Positions 5,577 through 16,717 are shown, counted from the stretch's first letter. The stretch: DNA of 24,000 nucleotides from Salsuginibacillus kocurii DSM 18087 (GCF_000377705.1 NZ_KB898629.1:138189-162188); one strand, 5' to 3'. Notes: generated by a model not told the origin, from the sequence alone. A program made the numbers and translations.

Positions 5577-6057
5577 GGAGAAATGTTATTAACTCGCCAA
5601 GAAGAGCAGAAAAATAAGCAATCCCCTCTCCTAGAAGATCAACAGTGGGAAGAGTTAAGTTGGATCGTACATGAAGCATTGGAATGGATAACACCTTTAT
5701 TGATCCCCTTATCAAAAAAAATGTTATTTTTATCCAGTGTGACCCCTCAATCTTCGAATCGTTTCCGTTTTAGAATATATGATCAATATTAAACGGAGTT
5801 TATCAGGGATTGGCGCGGAGAAACCACTGATCGAGTAAAAGTATAGTATAGCATAGAATTATTTATTAAAGGACGGCAGTTACACACTGCTTCCGTGGTC
5901 ATCGTTATTCCTCCTGTTATGTTGGGTGTTTGGTTACTTTCATCATAACGGAATAACGATGGCTTTAGCTATACCTTTAGCTGTTGCATTTAATTTTATA
6001 ATCAAACGTCGGAAATATTTTTAATTTATGGTAATTTTTACTTTCCGTTAAAGATTT

Positions 6058-6063
6058 ATAATG
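6058..6063 (+). promoter_or_regulatory. Candidate -10 box (TATAAT) upstream of the bacteriocin gene
   Basis: A perfect TATAAT lies 57 nt upstream of the ATG at 6120. No convincing -35 is found at 16-18 nt spacing. The RBS GAGGAGAGG is at 6109-6117. Confidence 0.3.
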
Positions 6064-6119
6064 TTAGCATAACTATCATGGTTTTTTAAACCTGAAGAAC
6101 TATCTGTGAGGAGAGGCTT

Positions 6120-6515
6120 ATGAAAAAATTATTTCTATCTATTCCTGTTGCAGCTTTGTTCGCAATACCCGCACATGATACTTTAGCAGAAGATGATATC
6201 ACAGAAGGGGAAGGTATCAATTTAGACGAGTTGATGGAAGAAAACGAATCTGGTGAAATCGGTCCTGGATATAATGAAGAAGTTAGTGTTAATAGTAACC
6301 CAGGAAATGGCCCTGATGGTGGAGGATATCATAGTGTAAACTGGCACGGAGATACTCATACATCAGTTTATGACCATTACGAATTAACCCATAGAGCAAG
6401 TGCTGGCAATTCAAGATCAAATGTACGAAGTGCATGGGAAAGACAAGGAACAACAGCAAGGGCCACGATAATATCAACTCTAACAGGAAACACAGCAAAT
6501 TGGGCTACTAGGTAA
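6120..6515 (+). CDS. Lactococcin 972-family bacteriocin precursor (Sec signal, acidic pro-region, conserved C-terminal core)
   Basis: Signal peptide is MKKLFLSIPVAALFAIPAHDTLA|ED. The C-terminal 65 aa are GGGYHSVNWHGDTHTSVYDHYELTHRASAGNSRSNVRSAWERQGTTARATIISTLTGNTANWATR. By eye they align to mature Lcn972 (EGTWQHGYGVSSAYSNYHHGSKTHSATVVNNNTGRQGKDTQRAGVWAKATVGRNL...). The shared pattern is W.(H)G, S.Y.H, TH.A and G..A[KR]AT[VI]. The gene is followed by the family's hallmark DUF1430 membrane protein and dedicated ABC ATPase. Confidence 0.7.
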   Translation: MKKLFLSIPVAALFAIPAHDTLAEDDITEGEGINLDELMEENESGEIGPGYNEEVSVNSNPGNGPDGGGYHSVNWHGDTHTSVYDHYELTHRASAGNSRSNVRSAWERQGTTARATIISTLTGNTANWATR

Positions 6516-6525
6516 TTCCTAAACG

Positions 6526-6563
6526 AAAAGATAATAGGCCAAAATATGCCTATTATCTTTTTC
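6526..6563 (+). terminator. Intrinsic terminator/attenuator between the bacteriocin gene and the immunity/transport genes
   Basis: AAAAGATAATAGGC (6526-6539), loop caaaatat, GCCTATTATCTTTT (6548-6561), continuing into a T-run. The stem is 12-14 bp and perfect. Confidence 0.75.
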
Positions 6564-6591
6564 ATCCGAAGGAGACTAAAGGAGACTAAAT

Positions 6592-8757
6592 GTGAACAAA
6601 ATCATATATTGTTTATTAGGGACAGTTTTCATATTAATAAACATATTTGGTTTTAATTTATTTAATGAGAAACTATCCTACAATATTTTATACAACGATT
6701 CGGATATTCTGACAGTAGATTTTAATGGTAATGAAAATTTAAATATCGAAGATATTCAAAGATTTTCAGAGAAAGAAGAAGTTAACATATCTCAATATAA
6801 TTTCTTTACTGAGGACAGAGTGAATATATATTCAACTAACTTAAATATTGATCCAAACCTTCATATCCATGAAGGTTCGCTCCCTCACGATAGTGAATAT
6901 ATATCTAATATCAATAATTACTCGACTGAGCAATCTGGTGTTATCACATTTCCCTTAACAAACATGGAAGTGCGTTATTATAACTACCAAGATATAGTGA
7001 ATGTTGGAGTAGATAACAGATTCTATATCAATGGAGATACCTCTCCAGAAAGCTTAGAACGTGTAAAGGAGTTCTTTTCTCAATATGGAGAGGTTTCATT
7101 TGTAAACGATCAAGTAAGTCTTCTACAATTGTTGAATTTCCCTTTATTACTAATTTCATTTTTATCATTAGTTCTTTATGTTATTGGGCTATTTTTCTTT
7201 TTAATACAAAATAGAAAAATGTACATTCTTCTTAACTTATGGGGTAGTTCTAATGTCAGAATTATCCTTGTGACAATTAAGCTTCTTATAAAACCCATTT
7301 GTATTATTTTTAGTGCTTTATTTGCAACGTTGCTGATTATAATTTTATATTTAAATCAAACTGAATACTTATTAAGCTATCTATCTACTTTTCTAGCATT
7401 TAATATGTTTATAATTACTGCAATTATTACATTGACAGTGATGGTTTCTGCTTCTCTCATTTCGATGATTAATATGAATACCATAAAGGGAGACTTCCCT
7501 TTTCGAAAAGTACACTGGGTTGCTGTAGCAACTAAAGTTACAACATCATTAATCTTCTTTACTATGATTGGCTTTTCAATAAACAGTTTCTTAGATTTAA
7601 ATGAGAAATTGGATAGTTTTGATTACTGGAATGAGGCACAAGATATTTATAGATTGCAGTTAACTGCAGGAATAGAATATTTAGAGGAAAATTTGGAACA
7701 AGATAGAGATTTTAATAATAGAATGGACCGTCTCTACAAACAGTTAGAGTCCGAACATAATGCTTTTCTAATGGGTTCAGAGAACTTTTATCCACTAGAT
7801 AATGACACCGAATCTGAACCTGAATACATTTACACCCTTAATGCTGGAGAGGAAGAATTTTACTTATCATCTGGGAGAAGAGTAACTATAAATGAGAATT
7901 ATTTAAACTATAATCCTATAGAGGACGTAAATGGTGATAGTGTAGTCTCTCAATTAACTTCAGATTCAAATACTTTGGATATTTTAGTTCCAGAACAATT
8001 TTCAAATCTAGAAAATGAGATTTTAGATGAGTATTTGGATTACTTCTACTTCCAAAAAGTTGAAGTTGATGACATTTATAATGAGGAATTAAATGAACCC
8101 TTAAATGACACATCTGTGCAAGACCTTTCTATTAATATTATATATACAGAAGAAGGTCAAGATTATTTCACTTATAAAAGCAACACAGGTGATAATCAAA
8201 ATAACATTACAGATCCAATTGCTATTGTATATGACAATAACTTTGATAATTCTTATATAAGTGCATTATCAAGCACATCCTTATATTTCGAGGATTATTC
8301 GTCTGGAAACGCATTCAACAACATAGAACCTTATCTAATGGACATTGGCGTTCCAGAGGTCGGCTCAGTTACTTCTGTTTTCAACGAAGCCAGTGATGAA
8401 ATTGTAGAGCATTCAAGGCTATTACTACAACAATTAATAGGTTTGATTGTTATTTTTACCTTTATCATCATATTTTTAAGTCTATATATATGGACGTATG
8501 TCGCGATAAATATGAAAAAGCTCAATCTAAAGTATATCTTAGGTTATTCGTTTTTTAATCGTAATAAACACTTGTTATTAATTAGCTTTTTAACAACTAT
8601 TATTATAGGATTATTGTCTTCCCTGATTCACGATATTCTTTTAATCATACCCATTGCATTTCTCTTCTTTGCTATTGAATTTTTGATAATTTATGGGCTA
8701 AGTACTAATTTTGTAAAAAAGAATATAAATAAGGTCTTAAAAGGGGATTATTTATGA
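6592..8757 (+). CDS. Bacteriocin-associated integral membrane protein (DUF1430 / bact_immun_7tm-like, MacB/FtsX-type architecture)
   Basis: 721 aa. Layout is an N-terminal TM, an ecto-domain of about 160 aa, a cluster of TMs (residues about 180-330), an acidic/Asn-rich ecto-domain of about 280 aa, then three C-terminal TMs ending ...NKVLKGDYL. The GTG start lies 5 nt after a duplicated AGGAGACTAA. The gene is very AT-rich. Position and size match the putative immunity/permease gene of Lcn972-type loci. Confidence 0.75.
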   Translation: MNKIIYCLLGTVFILINIFGFNLFNEKLSYNILYNDSDILTVDFNGNENLNIEDIQRFSEKEEVNISQYNFFTEDRVNIYSTNLNIDPNLHIHEGSLPHDSEYISNINNYSTEQSGVITFPLTNMEVRYYNYQDIVNVGVDNRFYINGDTSPESLERVKEFFSQYGEVSFVNDQVSLLQLLNFPLLLISFLSLVLYVIGLFFFLIQNRKMYILLNLWGSSNVRIILVTIKLLIKPICIIFSALFATLLIIILYLNQTEYLLSYLSTFLAFNMFIITAIITLTVMVSASLISMINMNTIKGDFPFRKVHWVAVATKVTTSLIFFTMIGFSINSFLDLNEKLDSFDYWNEAQDIYRLQLTAGIEYLEENLEQDRDFNNRMDRLYKQLESEHNAFLMGSENFYPLDNDTESEPEYIYTLNAGEEEFYLSSGRRVTINENYLNYNPIEDVNGDSVVSQLTSDSNTLDILVPEQFSNLENEILDEYLDYFYFQKVEVDDIYNEELNEPLNDTSVQDLSINIIYTEEGQDYFTYKSNTGDNQNNITDPIAIVYDNNFDNSYISALSSTSLYFEDYSSGNAFNNIEPYLMDIGVPEVGSVTSVFNEASDEIVEHSRLLLQQLIGLIVIFTFIIIFLSLYIWTYVAINMKKLNLKYILGYSFFNRNKHLLLISFLTTIIIGLLSSLIHDILLIIPIAFLFFAIEFLIIYGLSTNFVKKNINKVLKGDYL

Positions 8758-9377
8758 TCGAACTTAATAGGATAACCAAATCTTTTGGTGACGAGATTAT
8801 ATTCAATAATTTTTCTTTACATGTAGAAAAAAATGAATTTGTTGCTATCCTGGGTAAGAGTGGTTCTGGTAAAACCACTCTGCTTAATTTAATGGGTTCT
8901 CTTGAAAAACCAGATAGTGGTACCATCTCAATAATGGGGGTTACTAACCCATTTGGAAAAAAGTTAATGTTGTTGAGGAGATACAACATAGGGTATATAT
9001 TTCAACATTATTTTTTATTGGAAAATGAAACAGTGTATGAAAACTTAAAAATGGGAGCTATTTATAATAAAAAAATAGATAAAGATAGAATTGATAAAAT
9101 TATTACGGAGGTTGGCTTAGAACCATCTTTCTTGGATAAAAAGGTTTATAAGCTAAGTGGTGGGCAGCAACAAAGAGTAGCATTCGCACGGATAATGTTA
9201 AAGCCTTGTGAGATAATATTGGCAGATGAGCCCACAGGGAACTTGGATACTAACAATAAAGAGTTAATTATCTCCCTTCTAAATCACCTTAAAGACAGTG
9301 GCAAAACTATAATTTGTGTAACCCATGACAAAGAGGTTGCTACGAACTCGGATAGGATATTAGATATTTCCAATTAG
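8754..9377 (+). CDS. ABC transporter ATP-binding protein (lactococcin-972-group / MacB-LolD-like ATPase)
   Basis: Motifs present: Walker A GKSGSGKT, Q-loop IFQ, signature LSGGQQQR, Walker B IILADEPT, D-loop GNLD, H-loop VTHD. The ATGA overlap with the upstream stop suggests translational coupling. It has 207 aa and no fused TM domain. Confidence 0.9.
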   Translation: MIELNRITKSFGDEIIFNNFSLHVEKNEFVAILGKSGSGKTTLLNLMGSLEKPDSGTISIMGVTNPFGKKLMLLRRYNIGYIFQHYFLLENETVYENLKMGAIYNKKIDKDRIDKIITEVGLEPSFLDKKVYKLSGGQQQRVAFARIMLKPCEIILADEPTGNLDTNNKELIISLLNHLKDSGKTIICVTHDKEVATNSDRILDISN

Positions 9378-9393
9378 TGAGGTGCTTGCACTT

Positions 9394-9576
9394 ATGAAGA
9401 TTTTTACCTTAACGGCCATAAATTGTATATTAATATTACTTACAGTCTTTATACACAAAATAATATACCGTATACTTCTATTAGATTATGAGAGTTTGGT
9501 TTTGTATTGGGGATTATTTTTATTAGTATTTTTTCCTATGAGTCTAGTTGTAAATATAATATTTAACAAGAAATAA
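9394..9576 (+). CDS. Small hydrophobic two-TM protein (60 aa) of unknown function, last gene of the island operon
   Basis: GAGGTG (9380-9385) lies 8 nt before the ATG at 9394; the ORF-track start is GTG 9382. Sequence: MKIFTLTAINCILILLTVFIHKIIYRILLLDYESLVLYWGLFLLVFFPMSLVVNIIFNKK, giving two hydrophobic spans. It has the same strand and AT-rich composition as the cassette. No family was recognised. Confidence 0.45.
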   Translation: MKIFTLTAINCILILLTVFIHKIIYRILLLDYESLVLYWGLFLLVFFPMSLVVNIIFNKK

Positions 9577-9815
9577 TCACAACTGAATACGGCGGACGAT
9601 TCTTACCACCTTTTGCGAGGAAATGTACCACTCAGGAATTCTTTACCACACATGAAAAGAATGGATTAAATATTACCATTACCATTGGATAGAGCCGGTT
9701 GTGCCATTTGTAAGCCACTAAAAAGGAAGTCATCGCATTAAATATCGTGAATCGTTGTTTGAAGCAAAAAGTGTTCAAAATTAACGAGCAAAAATTGTTC
9801 ATTTCTACTTGACGG

Positions 9816-10295
9816 TTACAATTGCACAATAACGAGTGCAGAAAACCCTTTTTCTTTATGGATAGTGGATTGATTCAAAAACGATCTTGGTATAGTATGA
9901 CTCCATTCCCCATGACAGTTCTAAACTATCAGTTGTTGCTTCATAGGAAACTCTTTCTCCTGATTCTGCGTTCGAAACGTGAGGAAGAGCAACCCCGAGA
10001 GATTAGCTTCGTGCTGATCCATTGCCATATACATCAAGTCATCAATAATAACGAGATTTGCTTCACGGGTGCTGATAAATCAGGATGTTCCCTTAACCAA
10101 TCCAATATATATGATTGATACGGGTATAACTTTTTTTGTTCTTGTTTTCAGTGTTTTTACCCATTCGACCGTTTCATCGAATTGTTTCTCTAAATAAGCA
10201 TATACCGTGTTTCTTGAGAGTCCACATTTCCTCGCAATAGCAGCAATACTAAATCCTTCTTTTTTTAACTGATGAACATAAACATGTTTTCCAAT
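9816..10295 (-). pseudogene. Decayed IS21-family element: istA N-terminal HTH fragment fused by internal deletion to a frameshifted istB C-terminal fragment
   Basis: Manual minus-strand translation gives three pieces:
- IGKHVYVHQLKKEGFSIAAIARKCGLSRNTVYAYLEKQFDETVEWVKTLKTRTKK, an IstA-type HTH;
- a frameshift to LYPYQSYILDWLREHPDLSA;
- then LVIIDDLMYMAMDQHEANL... (IstB Walker-B region), ...ATTDSLELSWG... and ...STIHKEKGFS..., spread over three frames.
There is no ATG start (TAA precedes an ATT codon). Confidence 0.6.
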
Positions 10296-10444
10296 TTACT
10301 CACCTTTCGTAGCCCCCTGATCCCCACTCAATATTTCCATTAAGTGTACATGATCAAAAGGAAGTAGTAACGAAAAGTGTTCAATTCTATCAAGCAGAAT
10401 GTGTTAACTTTAATCTAGCAGTTACATGAGTATGGGTCTGCTTC

Positions 10445-11047
10445 AATCATAGCTTGTCCAGCTGCGAGCGCCATTGGCTTGTGATCCCTTTTCCCCGCCC
10501 TGCGGCGGCAACAGCCTCCTCGGCGGGGAAGAAGGGCCCTGCGCCAATGGTCAGGCGCCCTCCGCTTTTCGATGTCTAGCTTCAAGCGGCAGGGGCTCGA
10601 GGTCAAAAGTCGCGCCCTTTCAAAGCCAAAAAGCGGCTTTGTGCAGCGCTCGCCTTTTGCTTGACCCCTAGCGCCGCTTTCCGCTTTTCTGTCTAGCTTC
10701 GGGCGTTAGCGGCTTGCAATCGCTTCTGGACCGGACTGCGGCGGACGCGTCCTCCTCGCCGGTTAAGAAGCGTGCTGCGCCGCTACCCAAACGCCCTCCG
10801 CTTTTCTGTCCAGCTTCGCGGACTAACGGCTTGAGATCCCTTTCTCCCACCCTGCGGCGGCAACAGCCTCCTCGGTGGGAGAGAAGGGCTCTGCGCCGCT
10901 GAGCAAGCCCGCTCCGCTTTTCTGTCTAGCTGCGGCGCCTAGATGCTCGAGGTTTTTTCTGCCCCTGACTTCGAGGAGCGAGCTCCTCTGCGCAGGTGCT
11001 GAAAAACTTGTCGCCTCTAAGCAAGGCGCCTTCGCTTTTCTGTCTAC
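10445..11047. repeat. Tandem array of GC-rich repeat units with a period of about 117 bp (5 units plus partial ends), in two unit subtypes
   Basis: The core TCCGCTTTTCTGTCYAGCT starts at 10561 (with a 2-nt insertion), 10680, 10797, 10913 and 11031 (partial). Spacings are 119, 117, 116 and 118 nt. Type A units (about 10445-10560, 10680-10796, 10797-10912) share CTGCGGCGGCAACAGCCTCCTC inside a long hairpin. Type B units (10561-10679, 10913-11030) share GCTCGAGGT. Spot GC is 73% for 10501-10560. Confidence 0.85.
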
Positions 11048-11541
11048 CTGATCCAGCCGGGGTGCCATTGGAAATGGGTGTTGGTTGGTTCGGAGGGAGG
11101 ATCGAAAATAAATGATGGGTAGGGTAGGGAGAGAGCGGGGGTGTAGTCTGGTGAGATGAATTTGAGTGATTTCAAATCTGGGTTGGTTGGGAAATGTTCA
11201 TCGCTGTATACACGGCATTCAAAGACGATCAGTGTGTACTCCACTTGATCGCCGTTTGGATCTTCGTATTGAAAGTCTTCGCCGCCGAAGACACCGGTCA
11301 GCTGGGTAGGGACTACGTCGAGCCCGGTGTCTTCACGTACTTCACGGATTAGAGCTTGGGCAGGTGCCTCTCCGGGTTCAATGGCCCCAGATGGCAGGCT
11401 CCATCCTTCAATTGTTCCATTATCTTTAAATAAAATTTGTCCTTCTTCATTACGGATGATAGCGGCGACACTTGGCATAAACACTCTTTCCTGGCCGATT
11501 TTTTGACGCAGTTTTTTATAATAGCTTGACATGTGCATCAC
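11044..11541 (-). CDS. Nudix hydrolase
   Basis: Nudix box GAIEPGEAPAQALIREVREDTGL fits GX5EX7REUXEEXGU. It has 165 aa. Its stop codon (11044-11046) lies inside the last partial repeat core of the array. Confidence 0.85.
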   Translation of the reverse strand: MMHMSSYYKKLRQKIGQERVFMPSVAAIIRNEEGQILFKDNGTIEGWSLPSGAIEPGEAPAQALIREVREDTGLDVVPTQLTGVFGGEDFQYEDPNGDQVEYTLIVFECRVYSDEHFPTNPDLKSLKFISPDYTPALSLPYPSFIFDPPSEPTNTHFQWHPGWIR

Positions 11542-11681: not shown

Positions 11682-12059
11682 TCAGCTTACTAAAAAAAAG
11701 CCGACCGCAAACAGCAGCAGGGATCCTGCAAAGGAGAGCGTAATATAGGCGAAGCAGGCGCCTAACCTGCGTTTTTCTAAAAGCTGAAAGGCTTCGACAC
11801 TAAAGGTGGAGAAGGTGGTAAAAGCGCCGAAAAATCCGAGTCCGATGGTAAGGTAAAGGGTGTCGCTGTAAATGTCAAAAGGGACGCTGCTGTAGTTGAA
11901 TCCAATAAAAAGGCCGAGCCCGAGCGCGCCGAGGATGTTTACGACGAGCATGGCAGTTGGAAAAGGAGGATTCGGCACTGCTGACATCACGGCTTTGCCG
12001 AGCAGGTAACGGAGAATGGAGCCGGCAGCGCCTCCGAGCATGAGGAGGGTGATGTTCAT
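11682..12059 (-). CDS. crcB: Fluoride ion channel CrcB/FluC (paralog 2 of a tandem pair)
   Basis: 125 aa with four TMs. Motifs: GGAAGSILRY, VNILGALGLG and GAFTTFSTFSVE. Its start overlaps the upstream crcB stop by 4 nt. Confidence 0.9.
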   Translation of the reverse strand: MNITLLMLGGAAGSILRYLLGKAVMSAVPNPPFPTAMLVVNILGALGLGLFIGFNYSSVPFDIYSDTLYLTIGLGFFGAFTTFSTFSVEAFQLLEKRRLGACFAYITLSFAGSLLLFAVGFFLVS

Positions 12060-12466
12060 AAGTGTTGCCCCCTTTGTGGCTGCTTGGAACTCTTAGCAAT
12101 ACGTTCGCCGAGCAAAAATCCGGCGAAGGCCAGGAGGACCCCGCCAAATAATGTAATGGTTATGTACAAGGCCACAGCGCTGGTGGAGCTGGTGTCGGCG
12201 AGTAAAAAGGTGTCGGAGGCGATGGTGGAAAACGTTGTATAACCGCCACATAAACCTACGCCGAGTCCAGCCTTCACCCATTCTTTCGGGGTACGCAAGG
12301 CAAAAAATCCAGTGAGAGCGCCGAGCAATAGGCTGCCGCTTAAATTTTCAATGACAGTCCCTAGCGGCAGACCGGTGGCAAGGGTGGAGAGATTGATGCC
12401 ATAACGAAGGAGGGTACCAAGCGCGCCTCCAATCCCTATGGCTACTATAATTTTAAACATAAGCAT
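12056..12466 (-). CDS. crcB: Fluoride ion channel CrcB/FluC (paralog 1 of a tandem pair)
   Basis: Motifs: GIGGALGTLLRY, ENLSGSLLLG and GGYTTFSTIASD. I place the start at the internal ATG (MLMFKIIV..., 12466) rather than the ORF-track 12505, because CrcB proteins begin just before the first TM. Confidence 0.85.
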   Translation of the reverse strand: MLMFKIIVAIGIGGALGTLLRYGINLSTLATGLPLGTVIENLSGSLLLGALTGFFALRTPKEWVKAGLGVGLCGGYTTFSTIASDTFLLADTSSTSAVALYITITLFGGVLLAFAGFLLGERIAKSSKQPQRGQHL

Positions 12467-12780
12467 CGCCTCAGTTAAGGAAAGATGTCTCCCAAATGGT
12501 AACACATTACAGGTTGTACAGTTACATAGAATTTATTAGTCTGCCAAAAGAATTTGGCAAAACTCTTGCAATCGACAGGCTGCAATCGTACATTGAGATT
12601 GTTTCAGCGAATGATGTAGAAATATCGGAGTAGAAAGGTGGGTTGCGCAAACATCAATCGTTTTGCTCAACCGTGAGAAGAAGTACGTGTTCTTTCACTG
12701 GGAACGGGTCCGGAGCTCTTCTTAAGAAGCATAGGCACTGCGCAAAGGAATAGTTCGTCTAATGTAATGTAAAAGGAGTA

Positions 12781-13989
12781 GTGACTGAAAAAGAGAAAGG
12801 AATTGTACATATGACAACGAAACAAGGCAACGGTTCAAAATGGGAGATTTTAAAAGTATCAACTCGACTGGGGTTTACGTCATTTGGGGGGCCGGTCGCG
12901 CATCTCGGTTATTTTCATGACGAGTATGTCAAGCGGCGCAAATGGCTGGATGAACAAAGTTATGCTGATTTGGTTGCTCTATCTCAATTTTTACCTGGTC
13001 CGGCCAGCAGCCAGGTTGGGATTGGAATTGGGGTAATGCGAGGGGGGATAAGTGGGGGCTTATTGTCTTTTTTAGGCTTTACGCTACCTTCCATCCTCTT
13101 GTTGATGATTTTTGCATTTATGTTTCAAACCACGAATGTAGCAGGGGCAGGCTGGATTGATGGCTTGAAGCTTGTGGCGGTGGCAGTGGTTGCTCATGCC
13201 ATTGTTGGAATGGGGAAAAAACTAGCGCCTGATAAGGAGCGGGCGACCATTTCGTTTGTCACGTTAATGATTTTACTCGTTTGGCAGACGGTGTATAGTC
13301 AAGTATTATTAATCGCGTTGGCTGCTTTAGTGGGCTTATGGCTTTACCGGAAAACAGCAGAGACAGAAGACTCATCGTTTATTGTACCTCTCACCCGCCG
13401 GTTTGGCGCCATATGTTTAGGTCTTTTTGGGGCTCTTCTTGGGCTTTTGCCATTGCTTCGTGCTGTCTTTGATGTTTATTTTCTTGAGCTTTTTGATAGC
13501 TTTTATCGTGCGGGTGCGCTAGTTTTTGGCGGAGGTCATGTGGTGCTCCCGCTTTTAGAACGGGAAATGGTCCCTGCCGGATTTACAACAGCAGAAGAAT
13601 TTTTGGCTGGGTACGGGGCTGCGCAAGCAGTGCCTGGTCCGCTTTTCACATTTGCATCGTACCTTGGGGTGATTGCTGATGGCTGGGTCGGAGGTGTTGT
13701 AGCAACGGTCGCTATCTTTTTGCCTGCTTTTTTATTGATTCTGGGGGCCCTTCCATTTTGGTCAGAGATGCGCCGCTATCCAAACATGCAAGCAGCCTTG
13801 TTTGGTGTGAATGCGTGTGTAGTTGGAATTTTGGCTGCAGCTTTTTATAATCCCATCCTAACCAGTGCGGTTACAACTGGTCTTGAAGCAGCTATCGCCG
13901 TTGGGCTCTTCGGTTTGCTTGCATATTGGAAAATGCCGGCTTGGGGCGTTGTTATCGTCGGTCTTCTTAGCGGTATTTTGCTATTGTAA
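12781..13989 (+). CDS. chrA: Chromate transporter ChrA (CHR family, two-domain long form)
   Basis: FTSFGGPVAHLGYFHDEYVKRRKWLDEQSYADLVALSQFLPGPASSQVG is the hallmark CHR N-terminal motif. The second half repeats it (VFGGGHVVLPLLE...AQAVPGPLFTFASYLG). The true start may be ATG 12811 (AAAGGA 9 nt upstream) rather than GTG 12781. Confidence 0.9.
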   Translation: MTEKEKGIVHMTTKQGNGSKWEILKVSTRLGFTSFGGPVAHLGYFHDEYVKRRKWLDEQSYADLVALSQFLPGPASSQVGIGIGVMRGGISGGLLSFLGFTLPSILLLMIFAFMFQTTNVAGAGWIDGLKLVAVAVVAHAIVGMGKKLAPDKERATISFVTLMILLVWQTVYSQVLLIALAALVGLWLYRKTAETEDSSFIVPLTRRFGAICLGLFGALLGLLPLLRAVFDVYFLELFDSFYRAGALVFGGGHVVLPLLEREMVPAGFTTAEEFLAGYGAAQAVPGPLFTFASYLGVIADGWVGGVVATVAIFLPAFLLILGALPFWSEMRRYPNMQAALFGVNACVVGILAAAFYNPILTSAVTTGLEAAIAVGLFGLLAYWKMPAWGVVIVGLLSGILLL

Positions 13990-14647: not shown

Positions 14648-16717
14648 ATGAAAAAAATAAATCGGAAACGATGGGTAAAGTTGGGGGTGATGTCTTTATC
14701 AGCAACGGTGGCGTTCGGAATCACTCAATCTCCTGCTCAAGCGGAGAATGAAACCGAGCTTACGATTATACATACAAACGATATTCATTCTTCCATTGAA
14801 GGCTTTGCGGAACTTTCTGCGTTACTTGATGAAAAACGGGCGGAGAGCGATCATGTGCTTTTCTTAGACGGGGGCGACATTTTTAGTGGTGATCCAGTTG
14901 TAGACCTTCAAGATGGAGAACCAATAATCGAGCTTTTGAATGAAGTAGGATTGGATGCGTTAGCAGTTGGCAATCATGAATTTGATTACGGTCAGGAAGC
15001 CTATGCGTCGAGCGTGGAACAGTCTGGTTTCAGCTGGCTTTCGGCAAACACTGAAGTAGTAGACGACTCTATTCCGATTGAACAACCGGATGCTTATGAG
15101 GTATTTGAACTTCCGGACCTGGACGTGGCCGTGCTAGGTTTAACCCAGGCGCCTCCAGCCACAGCTCCTGCTGGCATTGAAGGACTTGAGTTCCATGAAT
15201 ACGCGGAAACAGCTGAAGAATATGAATATTTACAAGAAGAAAACGATGTCGTGATTGGTTTAACACATATTGGACTGTATGATGATGTTCCGCTGGCTGA
15301 AGAGATTGAGTATTTTGATTTGCTTGTCGGTGGCCACAGTCACACGGTCCTTCATGAACCACAGGTAGAAAATGGAACACCGATTGTGCAGGCAGGAAGT
15401 GATTTAAACTACATTGGGGAAGTAACGCTTACCATCGATGAAGATGCAGGCGAAGTGACCAATGTAGATGGCATGCTGCACGACATGGAAGACTTGGAAG
15501 CAGCCGATGAAGATGTCCAGGAGATGATTGATACGTACCTTGAGGATGCGGAAGAGATCTTAGAAGAAGTGGTAGGCGAGACGAATACTGGACTTACTCG
15601 AGACGGGCGTTATGAGCGAGATGTCGGATTGGGCAACTTCTGGACGGATGCTATGGCAGAGGCGTTTGGTGCTGACTTAGCCGTTACCAATAATGGTGGC
15701 ATTCGAGCAAGCATTGACCCAGGAGAAATTACCGCCAATGATATTTACACGGTCGAACCTTTCGGAAATGAAATCATGGAGATTGAAATCAGTGGAGAAG
15801 TGCTGCGCGACGTGATTGAATTTTCGTACACAAGAGAAGATCGTAATCAAATTGACCTGCAAACATCAGGGCTCCATTATGAAATTTATGTTGACGATGA
15901 TGGAGAGTATGTTGACGCGGAGCTTTGGATTGATGGTGACGTAGTAGAGGACGACGAATTATATCGGGCAGCAGTGCCGGACTATATCGGCACAGGGGGA
16001 TCTGGTTATGATTTTGATGGTGAAGTCATTCAAGACGGCGCCGGCGAAATTGCTACTTCTTTGATGCTGTATGCTGAACAGCTTATGGAAGAAGAAGGAA
16101 CCATTGATTTTGAAGATGAAGGAGAAGCCCGCATTTCTATTGAACCTGCCCCAGAGGAGGAAGACGAGGACGAAGAAGAAATTCCAGTTCCTGAATTCAC
16201 GGATATTGAAGGAGACTGGGCAGAAGCAAACATTGTAACGCTTGCTGAAGCAGGACTTGTCACAGGGTATGAAAATGGTGAATTCCGCCCGGAGAACGAT
16301 ATGACACGGGCAGAATTAGTAACTCTGCTTGTGCGGGCAAGTGACCTTGAAGAAAGCGATTATGAAGCTGACTTTTCCGATGTTGAAGGTGACGAGTATT
16401 ACGCCGGCTACTTACAAGCGGCGGCAGACGCAGGGTATGTACAAGGGCATGTAGATGGTTCTTTCCGGGGAAGCGCAGAAGTGAATCGACTTGAAGCAGC
16501 TCTATTACTTGCACGCTTTGCTGGCATCGATACCGATGAGTTTGACAGTGAAGTTTCTTTTGAAGATATCAAAGACATTGCAGAAGAAGCTCAGCAAGCG
16601 ATTGAGTGGTTAGCAGCAGAAGGTTATATTCACGGCTATCCAGATGGCACTTTCCAGCCAGGCGCTAGCTTACAGCGCAACGAAATGGCAGCGATGCTCT
16701 CTGGGTGGGTAGAGTAA
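14648..16717 (+). CDS. Secreted 5'-nucleotidase/2',3'-cyclic phosphodiesterase family metallophosphoesterase with three C-terminal SLH domains
   Basis: AGGAGG precedes the ATG at 14648. The signal peptide ends AQA|ENE. Metallophosphatase motifs are HTNDIHS, LDGGDIFSG, GNHEFDYG and GGHSHT, followed by a 5'-nucleotidase C-terminal-like region. A polyacidic linker (PEEEDEDEEE) is followed by three SLH repeats: FTDIEGDWAEANI...TRAELVTLL, FSDVEGDEYYAGY...RLEAALLLARF and FEDIKDIAEEAQQAIEWL...RNEMAAMLSGW. Confidence 0.85.
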   Translation: MKKINRKRWVKLGVMSLSATVAFGITQSPAQAENETELTIIHTNDIHSSIEGFAELSALLDEKRAESDHVLFLDGGDIFSGDPVVDLQDGEPIIELLNEVGLDALAVGNHEFDYGQEAYASSVEQSGFSWLSANTEVVDDSIPIEQPDAYEVFELPDLDVAVLGLTQAPPATAPAGIEGLEFHEYAETAEEYEYLQEENDVVIGLTHIGLYDDVPLAEEIEYFDLLVGGHSHTVLHEPQVENGTPIVQAGSDLNYIGEVTLTIDEDAGEVTNVDGMLHDMEDLEAADEDVQEMIDTYLEDAEEILEEVVGETNTGLTRDGRYERDVGLGNFWTDAMAEAFGADLAVTNNGGIRASIDPGEITANDIYTVEPFGNEIMEIEISGEVLRDVIEFSYTREDRNQIDLQTSGLHYEIYVDDDGEYVDAELWIDGDVVEDDELYRAAVPDYIGTGGSGYDFDGEVIQDGAGEIATSLMLYAEQLMEEEGTIDFEDEGEARISIEPAPEEEDEDEEEIPVPEFTDIEGDWAEANIVTLAEAGLVTGYENGEFRPENDMTRAELVTLLVRASDLEESDYEADFSDVEGDEYYAGYLQAAADAGYVQGHVDGSFRGSAEVNRLEAALLLARFAGIDTDEFDSEVSFEDIKDIAEEAQQAIEWLAAEGYIHGYPDGTFQPGASLQRNEMAAMLSGWVE

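Follow-up and report, generated by a model that had tools for sequence, protein, structure and literature searches.

Structured tandem repeats at gene ends of Bacillaceae, an apparently undescribed family represented by an array in Salsuginibacillus kocurii

Described repeats and how the family compares with them

Most work on structured interspersed repeats has dealt with Proteobacteria, with pneumococci and with the Bacillus cereus group. The repeats considered here form an array in Salsuginibacillus kocurii DSM 18087, in a stretch of 24,000 nucleotides (NZ_KB898629.1:138189-162188) which we call the window, and they belong to a family which is also carried by other Bacillaceae. Among the described systems REP/BIME-REPIN and ERIC come closest to the family in the way they work.

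The REP/BIME sequences and the REPIN-RAYT systems are known from enterobacteria and Pseudomonas (PMC3116915, PMC3337134). The family resembles REP/BIME in its GC-rich extragenic palindromes, which lie as arrays in 3'UTRs and intercistronic regions. It also resembles the REPINs, which are hairpins with a length of about 100 nt and presumably move single-stranded. Genome-specific sequence populations and long vertical persistence are common to these systems and the family. A REP, however, is 20-40 nt long, whereas the units of the family are 115-123 or 146-150 nt with a single hairpin of about 45 bp each, and neither of the tags of REPs, GTAG or CGTC, occurs in the invariant columns here, where the ends are GAAAAGCGGA and AGCTRGACA. 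Furthermore, orientation alternates within BIMEs and two inverted REPs make up a REPIN, while here all units are direct and the ends are non-inverted.

The ERIC/IRU elements of enterobacteria and yersiniae have been reviewed (PMC2229807). Like the units of the family, ERIC is an imperfect palindrome (about 127 bp) which makes one long RNA stem-loop; it is co-transcribed with the flanking genes, as would be expected of the arrays, and has TA at its insertion site. Its effect on mRNA stability depends on orientation and on ribosomes, and TA termini are listed for the Correia, ERIC, RUP and CIR elements (PMC2229807). ERIC differs by its short terminal inverted repeats, its TA duplication and its occurrence as single copies; the family has head-to-tail arrays with a fixed junction and no detectable duplication, and is found in Bacillaceae only. 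De Gregorio and co-workers reportedly noted in 2005 that some ERIC copies, when inserted in one of the two orientations, overlap a stop codon or adjoin it.

Two further repeats come from Firmicutes. The BOX elements of Streptococcus pneumoniae (PMC3049150) are modular, with a variable number of tandem internal modules, and are, as here, intergenic with stable stem-loops; they are also transcribed, as the arrays should be. BOX is built as boxA-(boxB)n-boxC, with a boxB of 45 nt and a stem formed by boxA with boxC, whereas here each 117-nt unit makes its own complete hairpin, and BOX has no sequence similarity to the family. The bcr repeats of the Bacillus cereus group are cited in PMC2267715. 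One of these, bcr1, is like the family an interspersed repeat of Bacillaceae with a compensated predicted RNA structure, but it is not known from outside the B. cereus group, lacks the high GC content of the family, is present as single copies and has a TTTAT duplication. In 2004 Okstad and co-workers reportedly described bcr1 as about 150 bp long, with an RNA structure supported by compensatory changes and with features of a mobile element.

The transposons of the IS200/IS605 type and their miniature derivatives share with the family the asymmetric ends, the reliance on hairpins and the strand asymmetry. They make no target duplication, and none was seen with the arrays; they insert on one side next to a short specific target, as the family may do. 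They carry two separate subterminal hairpins of about 20 nt, and the link is one of mechanistic analogy. As in MITEs, multiple dispersed near-identical copies are present per genome (Bacillus marasmi and Alkalihalobacillus sp. BA299); the terminal inverted repeats of MITEs are missing, the outermost 9-10 nt being non-complementary except for AGC/GCU and the inverted repeat starting inside of them. What is distinctive for the family are its direct head-to-tail arrays of complete 45-bp rods, its conserved non-inverted termini and its anchoring at stop codons.

The array in the window and the structure of its units

Between positions 10455 and 11040 of the window five GC-rich units, each 116-118 nt long, follow each other head to tail (Table 1). 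The GC content of the array is 0.56-0.60 as compared to 0.36 in the left flank. On the plus strand the 19-nt junction between units reads TCCGCTTTTC followed by TGTCYAGCT, and a unit cut at this core starts with TGTCYAGCT, continues for about 98 nt and ends with TCCGCTTTTC. The core TCCGCTTTTCTGTCYAGCT, 19 nt long, is present in exact copies at 10680, 10797 and 10913; the copy at 11031 has 2 mismatches, and the one at 10561 has a 2-nt insertion (TCCGCTTTTCgaTGTCTAGCT). The core-to-core spacing is 119, 117, 116 and 118 nt. With up to 3 mismatches allowed, 4 core matches were observed versus 0.05 expected from shuffles. A preliminary description of this DNA had counted five cores 116-119 nt apart and given the unit order as A-B-A-A-B, and both statements hold. 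Tandem Repeats Finder did not report the array when run on the window, because the units are too diverged (the unit bodies are mutually 60-77% alike). Units 5 and 4 are separated by a 2-nt spacer at 10571-10572, and distally, after unit 5, the array has a clean end at AGCTGGACA.

Table 1. Features of the array and of the gene next to it; bit scores are those of the covariance model R1.
Feature	Position in window	Strand	Evidence
Unit 1 (type B', gene-proximal)	10923..11040	minus	R1 85.5 bits; single hairpin, MFE -50.9 kcal/mol
Unit 1, sense ends 5'-GAAAAGCGAA...AGCTAGACA-3'	10923..11040	minus	
Unit 2 (type A; GAGGAGG within apical loop)	10807..10922	minus	R1 77.8 bits; inverted repeat I3; MFE -62.8 kcal/mol
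Unit 3 (type A variant)	10690..10806	minus	R1 73.0 bits; inverted repeat I2; MFE -57.2 kcal/mol
Unit 4 (type B)	10573..10689	minus	R1 82.9 bits; MFE -51.2 kcal/mol
Unit 5 (type A, distal)	10455..10570	minus	R1 68.1 bits; inverted repeat I1
Degenerate half-core AGGTAGACA, directly upstream of unit 1	11041..11049	minus	Sequence, ORF list, junction table
Nudix hydrolase gene, stop codon adjoining array	11044..11541	minus	Pfam NUDIX, E = 1.4e-17

The array is flanked by the Nudix gene, crcB, an ABC transporter and a bacteriocin-like cluster. The preliminary description had placed the Nudix stop codon inside the last partial core, and this is indeed its position: the stop is a TAG at 11044-11046 on the minus strand, within the degenerate core at 11031-11049, and the boundary between stop and array reads AGGTAGACA directly followed by GAAAAGCGAA. 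That the array might have replaced the C-terminus of the Nudix protein was considered and rejected, as the protein is native in the alignment as far as the invariant W163. A terminator scan found none that would separate the Nudix stop codon from the array, and the Nudix gene is probably the source of transcription through the array. A Logan assembly contig (L001) ends at the first unit of the array. No further copies were seen in an extra 9.6 kb of the same genome (L034), so that approximately 34 kb of this genome hold a single array.

Each complete unit folds into one long rod-like imperfect hairpin of about 45 bp, and for the window units the RNA MFE on the minus strand is -51 to -63 kcal/mol. 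The better-folding strand, called the sense strand in the following, reads 5'-GAAAAGCGGA...AGCTRGACA-3' and is in the window the minus strand, that is the sense strand of the Nudix gene. Of 45 units, taken from the window and from 21 other loci, 42 fold more stably on this strand, with a mean difference of 7.4 kcal/mol (Wilcoxon p = 1e-8). The sense consensus begins with GAAA, a 3-bp closing helix AGC/GCU, GGA and a helix P1 of about 7 bp. These are followed by a 5-nt bulge (UGCUC-like), a helix P2 of 6 bp and a 3x3 internal loop GAC/CGA, which is able to form tandem G.A pairs, and then by further helices and a variable apical module in which a GNNCUUU loop is frequent; the tail is AGACA. The parts conserved throughout the family are the ends, the basal helices, the 5-nt bulge and the GAC/CGA internal loop. 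Besides the two size classes of 115-123 nt and 146-150 nt there are a few units which are internally deleted.

The preliminary description had seen conserved structure in stems of about 14 bp near the tip of the type A units. The inverted repeats are found where it had put them (arms 10471-10499/10522-10550, 10721-10734/10759-10772 and 10838-10851/10874-10887) and the stems are real, with the minus strand, the Nudix sense, as the best-folding one; the conserved structure, however, is the whole unit and not the tip alone. The GAGGAGG which had been read in the loop on the other strand does occur in the apical module of type A, but this module is specific to this genome and not family-wide. The apical hairpin of unit 4, AAAGCC/GGCUUU, has the loop GCUUUUU, a loop type which is also present in other genera.

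Covariation was analyzed in an alignment of 34 units from about 15 genomes, from which the basal helices were recovered by RNAalifold. Of the 16 basal pairs, 13 show compensatory double changes. In the basal helices 95.4% of the cells are paired compared to 70.9% after shuffling, and 121 cells are changed on both sides compared to 30.9. The covariation score is 0.64 against 0.18 in shuffles, none of 500 shuffles reached 0.64, and all controls in which the partners were slid stayed at 0.11 or below. The basal helices contain 17 G.U cells versus 3 A.C cells, an excess which fits the strand asymmetry of the fold.

A second comparison used pairs of units 75-98.5% identical, each with its own fold. 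It gave 221 double changes which keep the pair, 157 wobble changes, 141 single breaks and 46 double breaks, in units and unit pairs which are phylogenetically non-independent. With independent substitution at the per-site rate of 0.157, about 65 of the 2653 aligned pairs are expected to be changed on both sides, and about 20 of these are estimated to be still pairing. Within the window, the units at 10807 and 10455 differ by 8 double changes which preserve pairing and by 1 break. The family hence displays covariation across diverged homologues, as structured RNAs do, and pairing is kept far beyond the neutral decay of a palindrome. The claim of the preliminary description that the constraint is on structure (RNA or ssDNA) rather than on coding is borne out, both in the window and in the 34 units. 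The signal is compatible with selection on an RNA or ssDNA hairpin and also with arm-to-arm correction in a DNA hairpin, both of which require that the hairpin is formed.

Distribution, position relative to genes and dispersal

A scan for exact matches to the 19-nt junction, with one genome per species, gave 27 loci. Bacillaceae account for 21 of them, in at least 14 genera; the named carriers are Alkalihalobacillus, Anaerobacillus, Alkalihalophilus, Bacillus marasmi, B. kwashiorkori, Anoxybacillus, Perspicuibacillus, Virgibacillus, Lederbergia, Guptibacillus, Mesobacillus, Pseudalkalibacillus and Salinibacillus, and several MAGs are found in addition. The remaining 6 loci are single chance matches in unrelated phyla. 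The preliminary description had mentioned similar repeats in Bacillaceae genomes, and the 21 loci agree with this. The covariance model which it had proposed was built from the 34 units (R1) and found 57 solid units in the Bacillaceae loci and 0 in the six chance loci. The unit counts come from pieces of 8-20 kb of the carrier genomes, and since the loci were ascertained by an exact junction, solitary units and diverged subfamilies are under-sampled. There was no B. cereus-group genome among the junction matches. BLAST against plasmids and phages gave no match to the array, and a scan of viral contigs did not find the 19-nt core.

No curated Rfam model describes the family: the window has no match at gathering thresholds, and the region 10300-11200 has only chance-level ones (E >= 1). 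In the literature, in which few subscription journals were covered, the core sequence turned up only as primer coincidences, and no earlier description was found in work on repeats or MITEs of Bacillaceae. Bhal-1 of B. halodurans (PMC2267715) was considered as a member and rejected, as it consists of unrelated AT-rich terminator-like sequences. The family is therefore apparently undescribed, and it has probably escaped description due to the fast divergence of the units and to gene callers which translate them as hypothetical proteins.

For 28 independent arrays we oriented the array by its folded strand and listed the neighbours, with ORFs taken from a simple finder. In 11 of the 28 the first unit begins 0-4 nt past the stop codon of a co-oriented ORF. 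For a random intergenic position and strand such an abutment has the probability 0.0104, so that p is approximately 3e-15. The preliminary description had asked whether copies cluster at the 3' ends of genes; the arrays listed here are anchored at gene ends, most often right at a stop codon and within a transcription unit. The abutted genes, whose functions were read from their translations, are mutually unrelated and have mostly recognisable housekeeping products. They are those for Nudix (the window), gamma-glutamyltranspeptidase (GGT), PurU, an ABC permease, a FadN-like dehydrogenase, GlyS, a Crp/Fnr regulator, YtzH, dihydrolipoamide dehydrogenase (Lpd) and two others. Their C-termini look native, that of Nudix according to the alignment to W163. 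At several loci the stop codon borrows the first G of the element, the gene contributing TA and the element continuing with GAAAAGCGGA.

On the 3' side of sense arrays we find either the native terminator hairpin of the gene, as at purU (L004, L029), glyS (L016), lpd (L027) and ytzH (L031), or the RBS and ATG of the next cistron (L003, L012, L024), and the arrays therefore lie inside transcription units. From this position the sense arrays should be transcribed as 3'UTR or intercistronic RNA. Approximately 9 arrays, about a third, have the opposite orientation and are placed between the terminator of the upstream gene and a downstream promoter-like sequence. The GAAAAGCGGA end of these antisense arrays is within about 10 nt of a -35-like hexamer (the promoters were read by inspection). 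They lie outside transcription units, where a role in mRNA is doubtful, and keep the hairpin equally well. This speaks for a requirement of the structure in propagation or in the DNA itself, and not in mRNA alone. Nearly all array starts, also those without a real stop codon, have a TA(A/G) 0-8 nt upstream of them, and this suggests that the 5' junction is a TA-containing target or terminal sequence. The idea that array orientation follows the replication strand was abandoned, since there is no significant GC-skew bias (17 versus 10).

Within a genome the hairpin bodies on different contigs may be 93-97% identical, as in B. marasmi and Alkalihalobacillus sp. BA299, while the best identity between genomes is 81% or less, and blocks of 2-3 units are common to non-orthologous loci. 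This indicates within-genome proliferation or conversion. Mobility is here inferred from similarity alone, a similarity which gene conversion could mimic. In the genomes compared, one per species, the 3' flanks have no repeat matching the upstream TA(A/G), and no target-site duplication was seen. No partner enzyme, and no RAYT gene, was identified in the 8-20 kb pieces of the carrier genomes.

The purU site illustrates what happens to an array over time. Alkalihalophilus marmarensis has 2.3 units there (two and a partial one), whereas A. lindianensis, with a PurU which is 92% identical, has a single chimeric unit composed of parts of the marmarensis units; in both species the array sits between the stop codon and the same terminator. 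From these two arrays it follows that arrays are inherited vertically over species-level time and that their unit number changes by unequal recombination at the conserved junctions. The site is empty in Halalkalibacter krulwichiae, H. halodurans and Alkalihalobacillus sp. BA299, and BA299 has arrays elsewhere within the same 20 kb. An ancient conserved 3'UTR element at purU was rejected, given this absence in Halalkalibacter, H. halodurans and BA299. Nor are arrays always truncated at the 3' end, as had been supposed for a time; this was partly an ascertainment effect of the junction search, and in arrays of several units a clean end is about as frequent as a truncated one.

Possible origin and function of the arrays

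The family is widespread, structure-constrained and strand-asymmetric, with arrays anchored at gene ends. The best explanation is in our view that we are dealing with Bacillaceae-wide structured interspersed repeats of the REP/BIME-REPIN, ERIC, BOX and bcr1 kind, which are co-transcribed in 3'UTRs and spread non-autonomously; to this we assign a probability of about 0.6. The family would spread, or once have spread, within genomes as a non-autonomous element. A single-stranded route which recognises the hairpin would place the GAAAAGCGGA end beside a TA(A/G) site. The 3' end of a unit, CTAGACA, would then mimic the TA(A/G) target and make the next unit land head to tail, and such mimicry would account for the exact head-to-tail junctions. 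Once transcribed, the RNA rods would most likely be decay barriers or processing sites which alter the decay of the upstream mRNA. Their proximity to the stop codon may bring the rods under the influence of the terminating ribosome. REPs of E. coli located near stop codons have been proposed to act in a similar way. For the ERIC elements of yersiniae a response to translation has been proposed (PMC2229807).

A more specific formulation sees in the family more than a further selfish palindrome and makes the stop codon itself the anchor of an element placed by a new mechanism. This would be either a hairpin-dependent insertion of a single strand (ssDNA or RNA) at TA(A/G), which would build polar head-to-tail arrays since the 3' end of each unit restores the target, or an RNA module which has to lie within the footprint of the terminating ribosome in order to control the fate of the mRNA. 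We put it forward as a tentative proposal with the odds well against it.

It could also be imagined that the arrays are no selfish repeat and that the host has selected them as a cis-acting RNA module, which would set the stability of the mRNA 3' end or couple translation termination to mRNA fate. Possible routes are a ribosome-dependent opening of the basal helix, the exposure of an RNase site, or stalling with trans-translation. The tight abutment to the stop codon (0-4 nt), the conserved unpaired nucleotides in the 5-nt bulge, the GAC/CGA loop and the GNNCUUU apical loops, and the retention of the array at purU in two species would all agree with such a module, and the orientation- and ribosome-dependent mRNA stability found with ERIC provides a precedent (PMC2229807). 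However, the abutted genes are functionally unrelated, three neighbouring genera lack the purU array, and the structure is kept in the third or so of the arrays which are antisense and outside transcription units. Near-identical copies at different loci of one genome speak for proliferation, and we consider a host-selected module to be an unlikely origin of the arrays.

Read in the opposite orientation, a unit is a hairpin followed by GCUUUUCU, and the arrays could then be stacked or bidirectional intrinsic terminators between genes. On the plus strand every hairpin of the window has AGC/GCU as its closing helix and TTTTCT directly after it, antisense arrays do lie downstream of genes, and the window array is situated between convergent gene sets. 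The U tract, however, has four U residues only, and 42 of 45 units fold less stably on the strand which resembles a terminator. In the sense direction the hairpin is followed by AGACAGAAAAG, and on the opposite strand, with its less stable fold, by no more than UUUUC, neither of which is what an intrinsic terminator has. The antisense arrays come after a separate native terminator (L011, L002), the gene in the commonest context reads the strand without the U tract, and a consensus scan finds no convincing terminator at the unit ends. A terminator function is therefore very improbable.

We are just as sceptical about an array of small-RNA genes, whose multimeric transcript would be cut between AGACA and GAAA into rods of about 117 nt which act in trans or are bound by protein. 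Such processing would suit a junction which is single-stranded and almost invariant next to variable helices, and also the uniform unit length (115-123 nt, with the second class at 146-150 nt). Against it, no promoter of their own is evident at the array starts, which adjoin coding sequence, there is no match in Rfam, no conserved neighbouring protein gene was seen, and the units within an array diverge strongly, although an RNA acting in trans on a defined target would not be expected to vary in this way.

Finally, the regular spacing of a short conserved core, the conservation of structure and ends rather than of sequence, and a size similar to that of attC might bring to mind integron recombination sites or a CRISPR-like array (19-nt repeat, spacers of about 98 nt), but this is contradicted by the defining features and is hardly conceivable: the units are contiguous without ORFs between them, the invariant ends have no RYYYAAC...GTTRRRY cores as in attC/VCR sites, the "spacers" are mutually homologous palindromes, the scanned flanking ORFs include no integrase or cas gene (0 of 9 window ORFs scanned were cas-like), and the arrays are scattered behind housekeeping genes.

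The interspersed repeats of non-autonomous spread which we prefer would extend what is known of such elements to many other Bacillaceae, among them alkaliphiles, halophiles, a thermophile MAG and gut isolates. The covariance model R1 can be used to mask bogus ORFs and to explain assembly breaks at arrays, and the variable unit number may make the arrays useful as typing markers. Long RNA rods placed 0-4 nt past stop codons constitute a natural test system for termination, mRNA decay and operon polarity in Gram-positives, and the family may give access to a route of transposition which has yet to be identified in Firmicutes. If the reading of the arrays as insertions at stop codons or as modules in the footprint of the ribosome is true, the 3'-end biology of Bacillaceae would have a layer which is widespread but has so far gone undescribed.

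Surroundings of the array in S. kocurii

The array lies exactly at the border between core genes and a low-GC island (window ~6000-10400), in which the GC content is 0.26-0.36 as against ~0.45-0.5 elsewhere. The island carries a lactococcin-972-like bacteriocin gene, a gene for a DUF1430 membrane protein and one for an ABC ATPase, and this cluster looks horizontally acquired. Just past the distal end of the array there is what remains of a gene resembling those for transposases or resolvases. The helix-turn-helix at its N-terminus, KEGFSIAAIARKCGLSRNTVY, gives matches to Pfam HTH_7 and HTH_23, and past this the frame is broken over three reading frames. The leader of two adjacent crcB fluoride-channel genes gave no fluoride riboswitch in Rfam, either at the gathering thresholds or with a cut-off of E <= 5.

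The short-read contig L001 of the same organism, which like its extension L034 comes from the Logan assembly of SRR892362, stops 39 nt into the array's first unit, a break which fits with assemblies being collapsed or broken by the repeats.

Features at or near repeat arrays (L016, uncultured Bacillaceae; L031, Alkalihalobacillus sp. BA299; L005 and L013, Bacillus marasmi)
Locus	Feature	Coordinates	Strand
window	lactococcin-972-like bacteriocin gene	6120-6515	
window	DUF1430 membrane protein	6592-8757	
window	ABC ATPase	8754-9377	
window	transposase- or resolvase-like remnant, frameshifted	9560-10298	minus
window	two adjacent crcB genes	11682-12505	
window	leader of crcB pair	12506-12780	
L016	two miniature units	6374-6449	
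L031	second short repeat	6630-6660, 13869-13895	
L031	palindrome downstream of purU	10874-11190	
L031	reading frame over array	15641-16420	
L005	reading frame over array	2215-2589	
L005	common flanking modules	~2190-2272, 2507-2590	
L013	common flanking modules	~7264-7347, 7826-7874	

Shortened units and neighbouring repeats

After glyS in an uncultured Bacillaceae there are two miniature units, 37 and 39 nt long, with the native glyS terminator directly 3' of them. Apart from a stub of helix P1 they keep nothing but the two conserved ends, and they look like internal-deletion derivatives which mark the minimal retained ends. At two separate sites in BA299 the sequence ...GCTAGACA is followed by a second short repeat, YCTCGAAATTTATAYTTTYTTATTCT, perhaps an extra 3' module that the element has in this genome. 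It should be noted that downstream of BA299 purU, at the place which the array occupies in Alkalihalophilus, there is a different long nested palindrome of ~200 nt, reading GGACCGT...AAAATAAAATAGCC...GGCTATTTTATTTT...ACGGTCC, which may belong to another repeat family.

Reading frames and composite blocks

According to the preliminary description, similar GC-rich intergenic repeats are translated as bogus hypothetical proteins in Bacillaceae genomes, and examples were indeed found: called or open reading frames run over arrays in BA299 and B. marasmi, and these have no Pfam match. The B. marasmi arrays on two contigs have extra flanking modules in common on both sides, a small hairpin ahead of the arrays (e.g. 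GGCGCAAA(T)GCGCC) and a module 3' of them (e.g. GGCTCCCARYTRGCCCCRTGAACCGCACGTGCCTG.AGCGGAAA); larger composite blocks are therefore repeated too.
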